From: Nannocystis bainbridge
GTDB lineage: Bacteria; Myxococcota_A; Polyangia; Nannocystales; Nannocystaceae
Direction: 5' to 3'
Length of the DNA: 64,000 nucleotides
Assembly: GCF_028368995.1 (NCBI RefSeq)
Contig: NZ_JAQNDL010000003.1
Location: 2,784,001-2,848,000, forward strand
A model generated the notes under the pieces. The model was not told where the DNA came from. It did not search any database and worked only from the letters and a program-made list of their open reading frames with translations. Made by a program: the position numbers and the translations under genes. Below, one piece after another: positions 29,637 to 37,015 of this stretch (positions are counted from its first letter, which is position 1; every line of letters starts with the position of its first letter).

Positions 29637-30989
29637 CTACTTCGAGTTGGCGGCGCCGAACGTCGGCTTGCAGCCCGACGACCAGCTGCCTGCCGGCCCG
29701 TCGGCGATCCGGCAGAACGACAGCGCGGCCTGGTCGGCGCCGTAGGACACCTGCGACACGGGCGTGAGGTCGGGCTTCAGCAGCGTCACCGTGTCGCCGT
29801 TGGAGCTGAGGCCGAAAGGGTGCTGGCCGGCCAGATCGCCCTTGGCGACCACCATGAACTGCCCCGGCATCAGCTTCGCCCCGGCGGCGAACACCAGCTT
29901 CTCGAGGTCGTCGACGGGGTCGTAGGTCGCGTCGAACGCCTGGTCGGTGAGGATCCACCCCGCCATGTCGAGCGGGTCGGCCCCGGCGTTGAACAGCTCG
30001 ATCTCGTCGTTGGTCGACTCGAGCTCGTTGATCGCCGCCGCCAGGTCCGACATGCACATCGAGGTGTCGAGGATGCACTGCGGCGTGCAGGCCATCGCCC
30101 CGCCGGTGAAGCCCCGGTCGGCGCACTTGGCCGCCCCGACGTCGAGGCCGTCGCAGGGCTCGCCGCCCTCGCGCACCCCGTTGCCGCAGATCGTCAGCGC
30201 CTCGGTGTTGGCCGCCCCGAGGGTCTGCTCGCAGTGACCCCACGAACCTGTCCCATCGGGCAGGCGGCACCACGACACCATCGCCGTCACCCCCTCGACC
30301 GTCAGCGCGTCGATGACCGCGTCGTCGCCGTCGACCAGCGTCAGCGTCTCCTCGCTGCTCGAGCTGATCCCGAACGGCAGGTCGCCCTCGCCCGACATCA
30401 CGTCGAGCTCGACCAGCACCATCCGCTCGCCGGGCATCAGCGTCGTCCCCGCGGGGAACACGTAGGTCTTGTCGGCCGGCATCGTCGAATCGTCCGACAG
30501 CCGCCAGCCGGACAGGTCGGCCGGCGCCCCGCCGGCGTTCAGCAGCTCGATCGCGTCGCCCTTGCCGGCGTACGGCCCCGACTCCGCCCCCTTCGAGGTC
30601 AGCTCGTTGAGCGCCACCAGCCACTCGGCCGGCTCGCCCACGCAGTTCGAGACGTCGAGCGACAGGCAGTCGGGCGCGCACGCCAGCGGCCCCGAGAAGC
30701 CCGGGTCGACGTCGGCGCACGACATCCCGCCGAGCTCCGCCCCGTCGCACAGCTCGTCGCCCCCGACGATCCCGTCGCCGCACGCCGGCGCGCCCGGCCC
30801 CTCCGAGGTCACCGAAGGCCCGTCGCCGCTGCTGCTGCTGCCGTCCGGCCGGTCGCCGCCGCTGCTGCCGTCGTCCGGCGAATCATCGGTGGCGGAAGCA
30901 TTGTTCATACCGCCGCTCGGGTTGCAGCCGACCAGCGCCGGCCCCGCGATGCACAATAGTGACAGAGACACCCCTACGATTCGCCGCAT
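29637..30989 (-). CDS. Lipoprotein with two lamin-tail domains and Cys-rich repeats
   Basis: Lipobox LVGC. LNEL/INEL...IELxNAG...DLSGWRLSD/DMAGWILTD, PFGISS/PFGLSS, TLGAAN/TFGAAN twice. CGDG/CGNG repeats. Confidence 0.85.
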   Translation of the reverse strand: MRRIVGVSLSLLCIAGPALVGCNPSGGMNNASATDDSPDDGSSGGDRPDGSSSSGDGPSVTSEGPGAPACGDGIVGGDELCDGAELGGMSCADVDPGFSGPLACAPDCLSLDVSNCVGEPAEWLVALNELTSKGAESGPYAGKGDAIELLNAGGAPADLSGWRLSDDSTMPADKTYVFPAGTTLMPGERMVLVELDVMSGEGDLPFGISSSSEETLTLVDGDDAVIDALTVEGVTAMVSWCRLPDGTGSWGHCEQTLGAANTEALTICGNGVREGGEPCDGLDVGAAKCADRGFTGGAMACTPQCILDTSMCMSDLAAAINELESTNDEIELFNAGADPLDMAGWILTDQAFDATYDPVDDLEKLVFAAGAKLMPGQFMVVAKGDLAGQHPFGLSSNGDTVTLLKPDLTPVSQVSYGADQAALSFCRIADGPAGSWSSGCKPTFGAANSK

Positions 30990-31039
30990 GACTCACCCGT
31001 TGTTTTTTGCTGAGATTGGGGACGTGAGACTGATTCGCT

Positions 31040-35047: not shown

Positions 35048-35629
35048 GACTGTCACCCTTCGTCGTCGCCGCGCCCCACGGCGCGCCATTGTGATGAATC
35101 GCCGCAGCGATCGTTCGGGCCGGGGACGCCCGCCAATTCACATCCGTCCATCCTAGGACCGCTTGTGCACCGAGACCGTGCGCTCGAGCATCGGCGGTCC
35201 CGATCGGGCCGCACACCGGGCCGGCGACGCGCTTCACGGCGTCGGCCGCGGCCCAGTCCCTCGCACGCGCAGCGCCCGCCCCGTCCCCCCCTCGCGGACC
35301 CCGACGCCTCCGTGGCCGAAATCTCGGCCCTGGCGCGCTCCCGCGCCCCGGCCCGCGCGATCACGCCAACCGCCAAACCTCCGCAGGGACGGCTCCAGCG
35401 GCTCCCCCGCCGGCTTCCGCCCGCCGCCGCCCCGTGACGCGGACCACCCCGCCCGCGCCCGCCCCCCCGTGACCGGCTCGACACCCACACGCCGGCCTCG
35501 TGGCGCCCTGCGGACAATGGTTCCACGCTTGCCTCGTCGTTCGCGCGGCCTCGACTCCGGTCCGGCGATCCGTAGATCCGTGACGCGCCGCCCTTGAATC
35601 CCTGGCCGCGCTGTTCACATTCCTCGAGC

Positions 35630-37015
35630 ATGCGCTGCTATTGGACGAGCCTCCTCGCGATCCTCACAGTTACCGGTTGTCCCGCCAATGACCCCCCCGC
35701 CGCGGCGACCGACGGCAACGGGGACACTGACGCCACCATGGAGACGTCGAGCACCGGTTCGGTCGGTACCACGACCTCGGCCGAGATGCCGACCACCGGC
35801 ACCGAGACATCCGGCGAGCTCACGACCACCGGCGACCCGTCGACCAGCACGGGCGGCGACGAGACCACCGGCGCCGTCGAGCCGCCGCCGGCGTGGCAGC
35901 CGAAGGGCTGCCCGGAGATCTACGCCCAGGACATTTTGCCCACCTTCGAGATCGAGCTCGACCCGGCGGAGCTGGCGGGGCTCGTGGCCGAGTGGGAGGC
36001 CGGCGACGACAACAATACGCCCGACCACCCGGTCGAGCAATTCAAGTACCAGGGCGAGGTCATCACCTATGCCTCGATCCGCCTGCGCGGCAACGCCACC
36101 TGGTGGCCCGGCCAGGGCAAGATGCAGTTCGAGATCGGCTTCAACACCTACGACAAGAAGGGCCGCTTCCGCGGCCTCAAGAAGATCCTGTTCGACGCCG
36201 CCGAGTATAACCGCGCCTTTTTGCGCGACCGCATGGCGATGCACATCTTCCGCGACCTCGGCCTGCCCGCGCCCTGCGCCAACAACGCCCGCCTGCTGCT
36301 CAACGGCGAGTACTACGGCCTCTTCACCAGCATCGAGAAGGTCGACAGCGAGTTCATCGAGCGCGTGTTCGAGTTCGACGAGGGCAACCTCTACAAGCGC
36401 GGCGCCGGCTGGGAGAAGAAGACCAACGAGAAGGACCCCGACGACAGCGACATCGAGGCGCTCACCGACGCCGAGACCCTCGCCGACCTGGAGCCGATCC
36501 TCAACATCGATCAGGCCGTGCTCGAGTGGGCCGCCGAGGCCGTCATGCCCGACAACGACGGCGCCTGGGCCGGCGGCCTCAACCTCTACGTCTACAACGA
36601 CCCCAAGACCGGCTTCAACATCATCCCCTGGGACAAGGACGCCACCTTCGATCGCGTCGAGCCTGACGTCGATCCATATACCTATATCAAGCCCAACGAC
36701 AAGGGCCGCCCGCTCTACGACATCGTCACGGGCGACCCGGCCTGGTTCGCCGCCTACGTCGAAGCGCTCGCCCACGTGCGCGAGGTCGCCTACGACGTGA
36801 ACGTGCTGCACGCGCGCATGGACGCCTGGACGGCCCAGATCGAGGAGGCCGCGCTGACCGACTTCAACAAGCCGTTCACCAACAAGCAGTATTACTTCGG
36901 GGTCGAGACGATGCGTCAGTTCATCACCGACCGCGCGGACTACCTCGACGATTGGCTGGCCTGCTGGCAAAACGGCGGCGAGAAGCAGGGCACCGGCCCG
37001 TGCGTCGAGCCGTGA
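35630..37015 (+). CDS. cotH: CotH-family kinase lipoprotein
   Basis: Lipobox VTGC, IRLRGN, LNGEYYGLFTSIEKVD, GNLYK, NLYVY, IIPWDKDATF. Confidence 0.85.
   Translation: MRCYWTSLLAILTVTGCPANDPPAAATDGNGDTDATMETSSTGSVGTTTSAEMPTTGTETSGELTTTGDPSTSTGGDETTGAVEPPPAWQPKGCPEIYAQDILPTFEIELDPAELAGLVAEWEAGDDNNTPDHPVEQFKYQGEVITYASIRLRGNATWWPGQGKMQFEIGFNTYDKKGRFRGLKKILFDAAEYNRAFLRDRMAMHIFRDLGLPAPCANNARLLLNGEYYGLFTSIEKVDSEFIERVFEFDEGNLYKRGAGWEKKTNEKDPDDSDIEALTDAETLADLEPILNIDQAVLEWAAEAVMPDNDGAWAGGLNLYVYNDPKTGFNIIPWDKDATFDRVEPDVDPYTYIKPNDKGRPLYDIVTGDPAWFAAYVEALAHVREVAYDVNVLHARMDAWTAQIEEAALTDFNKPFTNKQYYFGVETMRQFITDRADYLDDWLACWQNGGEKQGTGPCVEP

Follow-up and report, generated by a model that had tools for sequence, protein, structure and literature searches.

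What moves a substrate across the inner membrane when a periplasmic adaptor and a TolC-type outer-membrane factor are encoded together with no pump beside them? The question is raised by a locus in a 64,000-nt stretch of DNA from Nannocystis bainbridge (GCF_028368995.1, contig NZ_JAQNDL010000003.1, positions 2,784,001-2,848,000 of the forward strand), which is referred to below as the window. In this locus the adaptor and TolC genes follow genes for a VTC-domain protein, whose counterpart in yeast is the polyphosphate polymerase Vtc4, and for a DUF4956 membrane protein. Sequence comparison suggests, with a confidence that falls somewhat short of even, that the Vtc4-type polymerase and the MgtC-like DUF4956 protein make polyphosphate and pass the polymer into the adaptor-TolC conduit. 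The wider proposal, that the four proteins represent a new class of envelope-spanning secretion machine in which Vtc4-type chain growth would drive polyphosphate through an MgtC-like oligomer, an EmrA-like adaptor and TolC, is more tentative. The four genes of this cassette, with protein lengths in amino acids (aa), are the following.

34253-35047, reverse strand: VTC protein, 264 aa (Pfam VTC PF09359)
33573-34256, reverse strand: DUF4956 membrane protein, 227 aa (Pfam DUF4956 PF16316)
32374-33570, reverse strand: HlyD/EmrA-type periplasmic adaptor, 398 aa (Pfam HlyD_3, HlyD_D23, Biotin_lipoyl)
31040-32377, reverse strand: TolC/NodT-type outer-membrane factor lipoprotein, 445 aa (Pfam OEP, two repeats)

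The GC content of the window is 69-75%, and because of this the raw lists of open reading frames (ORFs) are crowded with shadow frames and the long ORFs are read-through. True starts were set from the gene junctions and from GC content at third codon positions (GC3), using a simple log-odds gene caller and Pfam. The VTC/DUF4956 and adaptor/TolC junctions are ATGA overlaps, and the stop codon TAG of the DUF4956 gene is followed by CC and then by the ATG of the adaptor gene, a gap of 2 bp. Reading the junctions bore out the tight packing described in an earlier sequence-only reading of this DNA. That reading also saw no ABC, RND or MFS gene in the operon; Pfam likewise finds none, and no AaeB-type inner-membrane transporter, in the operon genes and scanned flanks. 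The nearest transporter genes, CitMHS (39841-41211) and Mem_trans (43011-43985), are separate units. For none of the seven proteins tested did an NCBIfam family exceed its cut-off. Chance does not account for the arrangement, since related genomes and a second, paralogous locus retain the same five genes (the cassette and a gene for a lipoprotein with lamin-tail domains, LTD), and the four-gene core is found in three phyla. The host genome (11.05 Mb, 5 contigs) holds one VTC gene and one DUF4956 gene. PPK1 and PPK2 are encoded elsewhere in it, and the VTC protein is thus not its sole route to polyphosphate.

The VTC protein is a candidate polyphosphate polymerase of the Vtc4 type. The Pfam profile is matched over positions 1-235 of 235 in ORF 34253-35089(-), at 128.4 bits against a cut-off of 23, and the protein, which has no signal sequence and an isoelectric point (pI) of 9.8, is predicted to be cytoplasmic. 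A single-sequence search of the PDB gave no match; a profile of 10 homologues matched yeast Vtc4 (3g3q, E 8.1e-20) better than Vtc2 (2.4e-9) and Vtc3 (3.7e-7). In the available part of a cryo-EM preprint on the yeast VTC complex (10.1101/2023.01.27.525886), the triphosphate ligands of Vtc4 are K200, R264, R266, K281, Y359, R361, S457 and K458, the Mn ligand is E426, and K458 is the sole ligand that differs in the inactive paralogues, being Ile in Vtc2 and Leu in Vtc3. These positions were counted by hand on the profile alignment to 3g3q (chain index + 185 = Vtc4 numbering). All nine substrate or metal ligand residues are present in the window protein, with K15=K200, R77=R264, R79=R266, K94=K281, Y156=Y359, R158=R361, E213=E426, S239=S457 and K240=K458. 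R77, R79, K94, Y156, R158, E213 and K240 are invariant in 66 homologues, and K15 and S239 are conserved to at least 90% in the same alignment. The AF2 model has a pLDDT (predicted local distance difference test score) of 92.9. When this model was used in Foldseek, the first 12 listed rows contained nothing but tunnel domains of yeast VTC proteins (E 1.7e-14 to 1.3e-11), followed by YgiF at 7.1e-9 and by other CYTH proteins at 1e-8 or weaker. Judged by all the sequence and fold criteria tested, the window protein belongs fully to the catalytic VTC family. Pfam finds only the VTC domain in its 264 aa, with no SPX domain, and no DUF202/Vtc1-type domain in any protein of the operon.

The DUF4956 protein appears to be related to MgtC and is proposed as the inner-membrane partner, a view that draws on family profiles and on a predicted structure. 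PF16316 scores 34.9 bits (cut-off 30.6) in the ORF frame 33573-34859(-) and 36.1 bits for the window protein. Of 69 aligned family members, all match Pfam DUF4956 and 28 match MgtC PF02308 as well (E <=0.01, best 5.1e-6); the window protein itself matches DUF4956 and not PF02308. Its AF2 model (pLDDT 87) has helices at residues 13-41, 49-69, 71-87, 95-112 and 116-136 and a C-terminal beta-alpha-beta-beta-alpha-beta domain at 146-220. With VIA-align, this C-terminal part (residues 139-227) is ACT/ferredoxin-like at Z 8 to 10.0; among the rows are the MgtC C-terminal domains of Pseudomonas (7qa5, Z 8.7) and Mycobacterium (2lqj, Z 8.5). The most conserved motifs of the family are RGxSYSQ (43-49) and RFRxAxKDxRD (87-97), in which R87 and R89 are invariant. 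If the ACT-like domain is cytoplasmic, both motifs face the cytoplasm; a cytoplasmic ACT-like domain is likewise predicted by the authors of a Streptococcus intermedius study for their homologue (PMC12345266, available part). The model would then present basic motifs to the cytoplasm and periplasmic loops that are a few residues long. By analogy only, these basic loops may be likened to the rings of basic residues described at the mouth of the yeast channel in the available part of that work (10.1101/2023.01.27.525886). The family is large and uniform, with 9,439 cluster representatives at E <=0.001 and 6,330 at E <=1e-10, and each of its best 150 members is a stand-alone protein of 154-284 aa.

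The two remaining proteins of the cassette are of recognisable types. HlyD_3 (45.2 bits) and HlyD_D23 (34.1 bits) are found by Pfam in the ORF frame 32374-34140(-), and the best solved match of a 17-sequence adaptor profile is EmrA (4tko, E 1.8e-22), followed by LipC and MacA; the NCBIfam subfamily matches of the adaptor are all under their cut-offs. The N-terminus consists of a short Arg-rich tail and then one membrane helix, which is not specially conserved (entropy 1.84 vs 1.63-1.90 elsewhere). EmrA-type adaptors serve inner-membrane partners without periplasmic domains. The TolC-like protein carries the lipobox AAVGC and matches OEP in two stretches (114 bits, Pfam) in the ORF frame 31040-33538(-); NCBIfam outer_NodT, at 51.6 bits, is below its cut-off. 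Variants of the same genes occur in relatives. Adaptors of 689-702 aa, ~300 aa longer than that of the window, are encoded by the paralogous Nannocystis cassette and by other members of the Nannocystaceae (L040 7637-9706, L051 8701-10776, L054 8673-10781; L numbers denote loci of the comparison below), and a 292-aa protein without a Pfam family lies between TolC and LTD in L051 (12104-12982) and L054 (12106-12987).

The association of DUF4956 with the adaptor was followed across genomes. A scan of one genome per species gave 219 relatives, and the best 80 were kept and annotated with hidden Markov models iterated from the window proteins, on gene calls made by our own simple caller. Since these 80 loci are the ones most similar to the window protein and include near-copies, the fractions given here are not family-wide frequencies. 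VTC is present in all 80 loci (30/30 of those with an adaptor, 50/50 of the other type) and stands directly upstream of DUF4956 in 79. The adaptor gene is directly downstream of DUF4956 in 30 loci, and TolC comes next in 24 of these 30 and in none of the other 50; four of the six adaptor-type loci that lack TolC end <900 nt past the adaptor. DUF4956 is the only membrane protein that is always beside the adaptor. The adaptor-type loci comprise 17 from Nannocystaceae or otherwise labelled Myxococcota, 10 from Bryobacterales (Acidobacteriota), one from Fibrobacteraceae, and two on doubtfully labelled contigs (L062, and L085 with 71% GC and the label Klebsiella). The gene-neighbourhood check that the sequence-only reading had suggested has thereby been carried out, with VTC accompanying DUF4956 in 80 of 80 loci and the four-gene core occurring in Myxococcota, Acidobacteriota and Fibrobacterota. 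Nearer to the host, the closest named records for DUF4956 are from Nannocystis species at 95-96% identity, and a DUF4956 match is present in 21 of 41 genomes (40 relatives and the host genome). Four genomes of the genus retain the whole locus, one of them without CotH, the kinase-fold lipoprotein whose gene diverges from the cassette in the window. The second, paralogous locus of the genus, at 53-80% identity, has the order VTC-DUF4956-adaptor-TolC-LTD and no CotH.

A maximum-likelihood tree was built from 80 DUF4956 proteins, namely those of 79 loci and the window; L072, in which the gene is frameshifted, was dropped. All 30 adaptor-linked proteins fall on one side of a single branch (ultrafast bootstrap (UFboot)/SH-aLRT 100/96), and the adaptor label changes once on the tree, as it does in all 200 bootstrap trees (100%). 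On the opposite side of that branch are other Myxococcota (Kofleriaceae, Polyangiaceae, Sandaracinaceae). The rooting is at the midpoint and related sequences carry the same label, so the tree speaks for co-inheritance of DUF4956 and adaptor across phyla and not for their contact. Pfam finds no pump families in the flanks of eight adaptor-type loci (L051, L054, L065, L069, L070, L073, L074, L085). In non-adaptor loci scanned with Pfam, a Porin_O_P-like barrel is part of the cluster in 5 of 18, all of them myxobacterial (L029, L041, L078, L084, L107), and these clusters usually also hold a CotH protein of 930-960 aa and a 190-204-aa unknown protein; DUF2490 is carried by L027. The Porin_O_P-like barrels suggest a different outer-membrane passage tied to the same VTC-DUF4956 pair. 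In the monoderm lineages Actinomycetota, Chloroflexota and Bacillota only VTC-DUF4956-CotH is seen. The sequence-only reading had placed DUF4956 where the pump would be, and the support that this idea has gained is comparative rather than experimental: one clade with the adaptor, no pump gene and a full Vtc4 catalytic set.

Several loci of the comparison differ in what stands beside the pair. A DUF4956/MgtC-like gene lies next to a thymidylate-kinase-like P-loop protein of 549-573 aa and a Porin_O_P-like or unknown barrel in L039 (9506-15802) and L041 (9792-12852); L039 also has VTC and CotH, and no VTC is found in the scanned stretch of L041. After DUF4956 there is a phytase-like esterase in L081 (8688-9998, Omnitrophota), and a sulfatase/phosphodiesterase with several glycosyltransferases in L075 (8831-10258, Tritonobacter). 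An OmpR-type response regulator and a histidine kinase are encoded next to the cassette in L040 (2178-4255, the paralogous Nannocystis locus) and L070 (1298-3372, Bryobacterales), and this pair, of which the window has no example, may be a dedicated regulator of the cassette. A protein of 839 aa encoded on a 3.9-kb metagenome contig (P0002) contains HlyD domains at 44-216 and a VTC domain at 586-824; it may be a merged gene call or reflect another gene order, with the adaptor before VTC.

In the mechanism that we propose, the VTC protein would sit at the cytoplasmic face of a DUF4956 oligomer and build polyphosphate from ATP. The growing chain would be fed past the basic cytoplasmic DUF4956 loops RGxSYSQ and RFRxAxKDxRD, and the adaptor and TolC would carry it over the periplasm and the outer membrane. 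The driving force would come from polymerisation, as it does in the yeast VTC complex. The LTD lipoprotein and CotH would be optional extracytoplasmic clients, either as a substrate or as an enzyme that uses or processes the polymer, and not the reason for the exporter.

A number of observations weigh against this mechanism. No similarity of DUF4956 to the three-helix DUF202 subunits of a Vtc1-type channel was found by sequence, Foldseek or VIA-align, in searches that barely covered the membrane part because the C-terminal domain filled the list; a single-sequence PDB search gave chance matches only, and Foldseek with the model gave no match at E <=0.001. The published account of MgtC makes it a regulator acting on ATP synthase and PhoR rather than a channel, and deletion of the polymerase-domain gene in S. 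intermedius caused no significant change in aggregation (PMC12345266, available part). Triphosphate-tunnel (TTM) enzymes are mostly hydrolases or cyclases according to the available parts of the literature, in which a review of the distribution of the VTC domain treats eukaryotes, and no measured activity of any bacterial VTC-domain protein was found in the literature searched. No fusion of VTC with DUF4956 was found: among 8000 longer proteins scored, the one DUF4956 match (492 aa) contained DUF4956 only, and the five matches of the VTC profile to longer proteins were none of them joined to DUF4956. Two adaptor-type loci, L073 and L085, have >3 kb of sequence after the adaptor and no TolC, and the selection of the 80 loci by similarity counts on the same side. 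A basic TolC lumen was considered and does not discriminate; the OEP region of the window protein (pI 9.39, net +3) ranks second among the 14 TolC-family proteins of the genome, where the spread is small, and is only marginally more basic than in its 13 paralogues.

Two lipoprotein genes accompany the cassette in the window.

29637-30989, reverse strand: lipoprotein with two lamin-tail domains (LTD), 450 aa (Pfam LTD PF00932)
35630-37015, forward strand, divergent: CotH kinase-fold lipoprotein, 461 aa (Pfam CotH PF08757)

The LTD gene begins 50 nt after the TolC gene. Its product matches PF00932 in two stretches (89 bits), with a Cys-rich module before each LTD domain and the lipobox ALVGC. 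CotH scores 117.5 bits in ORF 35594-37015(+); the TTG at 35594 had been taken as its start, and the ATG at 35630 is most likely the start instead. The lipobox ascribed to CotH is indeed there (...LTVTGC), and the protein has a Thr/Ser/Gly-rich linker and a pI of 4.27. It aligns to Bacillus cereus CotH (5jd9) at E 9e-11, with the PWD motifs of the two proteins in register, and the alignment columns of its residues D310, N318 and D335 are conserved in 58, 66 and 65, respectively, of the 73 module-linked CotH rows. D228 and D251 of B. subtilis CotH are required for activity (PMC7821199, available part). The window protein has equivalent aspartates, that for D228 being assigned from the family alignment because the HMMER pairwise alignment is shifted by one residue. 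In a crude test, a hydrophobic N-terminal segment upstream of the domain was found in 59 of 70 linked CotH ORFs vs 2 of 62 VTC ORFs. Two further CotH genes lie elsewhere in the host genome. CotH is present within 8 kb in 60 of the 80 loci (12/30 adaptor-type, 48/50 other type). An LTD protein is present in 23 loci, with 15 of the 30 adaptor-type loci (after or before the cassette) and 8 of the other 50.

These genes bear on the purpose that the sequence-only reading had given the exporter, namely that the machine supplies the exported CotH kinase with a polyphosphate phosphoryl donor or a surface polymer and that LTD is a scaffold or substrate. We consider this unlikely. The linkage of CotH to the pair is strong among non-adaptor loci, matches to VTC, DUF4956 and CotH fall in the same 3 of 14 control genomes, the predicted location is extracytoplasmic for CotH and cytoplasmic for VTC, and the window CotH keeps the conserved D/N/D positions. 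Nevertheless, most adaptor-type cassettes have no CotH nearby, L064-L066 and L069 of Acidobacteriota being bare four-gene cassettes and the paralogous Nannocystis locus also lacking it, and to our knowledge no kinase of the CotH fold uses polyphosphate. The LTD lipoprotein, with a pI of 4.05 and a net charge of -48, would be a poor electrostatic scaffold for a polyanion, and CotH is acidic as well. The scaffold role thereby loses ground, while the LTD protein may still be a client or substrate; speculatively, LTD and CotH have acidic, Ser-rich linkers of a kind that would fit a substrate. In S. intermedius, the source of the only genetic data found, loss of the DUF4956-type gene or of cotH cut aggregation by more than half in one medium and altered the levels of Pel, and deletion of the polymerase gene, being without such a phenotype, is unlike that of cotH (PMC12345266, available part). 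The purpose of feeding CotH is thus weakened.

An alternative that we find comparably improbable takes the pair as a regulatory or housekeeping one, in which DUF4956 would be an MgtC-like sensor or regulator acting via its ACT-like domain, VTC would hydrolyse or sense tri- or polyphosphate, and the adaptor and TolC would serve a pump elsewhere or the protein encoded at 28320-29501. The relationship to MgtC (28/69 members and the C-terminal fold), whose described roles are regulatory (PMC12345266, available part), favours such a pair, as do the hydrolases that make up most of the TTM enzymes in the sources available and the multi-pass protein without a known family directly downstream. It is hard to reconcile an unlinked pump with adaptor-linked DUF4956 proteins that form one clade in three phyla and are translationally coupled; the 28320-29501 protein, moreover, has a homologue beside the cassette in no more than 4 of 80 loci and is a member of an independent family that is widespread, and VTC retains K240, at the position where active Vtc4 and its inactive paralogues differ. 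We give little weight to the idea that the cassette exports or modifies another product, such as a phosphorylated exopolysaccharide or protein, a short oligophosphate or a nucleotide-linked product. It is suggested by the linkage to Pel loci in Gram-positive bacteria and the altered Pel levels of the DUF4956-type and CotH deletions, as far as the available text goes, and by the neighbours of the pair in L075 and L081, which are glycosyltransferase, sulfatase/phosphodiesterase or phytase-like genes, and it is opposed by the lack of polysaccharide synthesis genes in the flanks of the window and of the 8 other adaptor-type loci scanned and by a VTC active site that is that of a polyphosphate polymerase residue for residue. 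Very improbable, finally, is an uptake system for external phosphate or polyphosphate in which VTC would trap imported phosphate as polymer. Phosphate-selective-porin-like barrels do occur in related myxobacterial clusters, but VTC needs ATP and is cytoplasmic, Pfam finds no periplasmic binding protein or Pst-type genes in the operon, and we know of TolC with an EmrA/HlyD-type adaptor for export only.

The polyphosphate exporter that we favour has partial counterparts among known systems. With the yeast VTC complex (Vtc4/Vtc3/Vtc1; PDB 3g3q, 7ytj, 8i6v) it shares the catalytic tunnel domain, which is also the nearest fold, and the nine ligand residues; the proposed logic is alike too, in that synthesis at the cytoplasmic face would be coupled to passage via a membrane partner with a basic entrance. 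Unlike the yeast complex, the window system has neither an SPX nor a DUF202/Vtc1-type domain, and its partner is an unrelated MgtC-like protein. The target in yeast is the vacuole, whereas that proposed here is the cell exterior via adaptor and TolC. EmrAB-TolC, MacAB-TolC and type I secretion have in common with the window system an adaptor with an N-terminal helix, lipoyl and barrel domains, a two-repeat TolC lipoprotein and operon coupling. In contrast to tripartite efflux systems, the only candidates for the place of the transporter in the window operon are the 227-aa MgtC-like protein and the soluble polymerase.

The same three families, cotH, polymerase-domain and DUF4956, occur in Gram-positive pel loci (Whitfield 2020, PMC7112168; S. 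intermedius SIR_1592-1594, PMC12345266). In the available parts of these reports, the DUF4956-type protein has the same architecture of four to five helices and an ACT domain, and the CotH protein is secreted. Unlike the hosts of those loci, the window host is two-membraned; it has no pel genes, its cassette includes an adaptor and TolC as well, and CotH is not an obligatory member. The trio was not found outside Pel loci by the S. intermedius authors, as stated in the available part of their report (PMC12345266), whereas all 80 loci compared here carry at least the VTC-DUF4956 pair. The MgtC family (Salmonella, Mycobacterium) shares with DUF4956 a related membrane domain, seen in 28 of 69 members, and the C-terminal ACT-like fold; MgtC is described as a regulator (PMC12345266, available part), and not as a partner of an adaptor or polymerase, as DUF4956 would be here. 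No description of the adaptor-TolC form of the cassette or of its mechanism was found in the literature, with the supplementary operon maps and domain models of the two Pel papers lying outside the search. No machinery for the export of bacterial polyphosphate to the surface or the medium was found in the literature searched.

If the proposed export is correct, a dedicated polymerase-plus-conduit would answer how polyphosphate reaches the bacterial surface or medium, and double-membraned bacteria would gain a dedicated route for polyphosphate on or outside the cell. The MgtC/DUF4956 superfamily would include polyanion conduits, and TolC would have a fifth kind of inner-membrane partner, one energised by polymerisation and not by ATP-binding cassettes or proton flow. 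It would also be the first function for a family comprising no fewer than 6,330 sequence clusters (E <=1e-10) and the first activity for bacterial VTC-domain proteins. The paper on the Clostridium perfringens pathogenicity locus NELoc-1 reportedly covers CotH with a VTC domain. The pair stands also in that locus and beside streptococcal Pel biofilm genes, which would give it relevance beyond soil bacteria.

Two further features border the genes described above.

35048-35629, no strand assigned: VTC-cotH divergent intergenic control region, 582 bp
28320-29501 or 28320-29627, reverse strand: multi-pass membrane protein without a Pfam family, directly downstream of the LTD gene

The intergenic region contains blocks that are conserved among five Nannocystis-type loci, with 79% mean column identity in a five-sequence alignment, and words resembling GCGTCACG are repeated in it. 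The exact word GCGTCACG occurs 3 times in the 64-kb window vs 12.2 expected, and 2 of the 3 copies are intergenic (35433-35440, 35579-35586); these words are a candidate operator. Rfam found nothing at E <=1 on 28000-37500, and a promoter scan found no promoter-like site. Five terminator-like sites were found, all antisense within cotH.

The sequence-only reading had the locus end at the LTD gene, which leaves the adjoining multi-pass gene at 28320-29501 just outside. Its product matches no Pfam or NCBIfam family, and the protein atlas returns unnamed or loosely named clusters only. It has 291 homologues in many bacteria, at ~40-45% identity in methanotrophs, iron oxidisers and myxobacteria; those listed, 120 in number, are Pfam-free except for one fusion, and some homologues bear the label MscS from their source with no supporting domain. 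The family is an uncharacterised and widespread one. Since its homologue is beside the cassette in only 4 of 80 loci, all from Nannocystis, the protein is treated as a mere neighbour and is probably not part of the conserved cassette.

Farther along the window, a pair of DUF1592/DUF1588/DUF1595/DUF1587/DUF1585 and DUF1552 (HXXSHH) genes is located at 23490-26662(+), ~3 kb from the cassette. The same DUF1592-type/DUF1552 pair stands directly beside an acidobacterial cassette (L074 12293-16182); the recurrence may be due to chance, as such pairs are abundant in these phyla. We also note that the gene at 21493-22089(-) matches the NpmA-type 16S rRNA (adenine1408-N1) methyltransferases (PF24675, 174.8 bits, cut-off 60), a family of the aminoglycoside-resistance kind that is found here in a soil myxobacterium.

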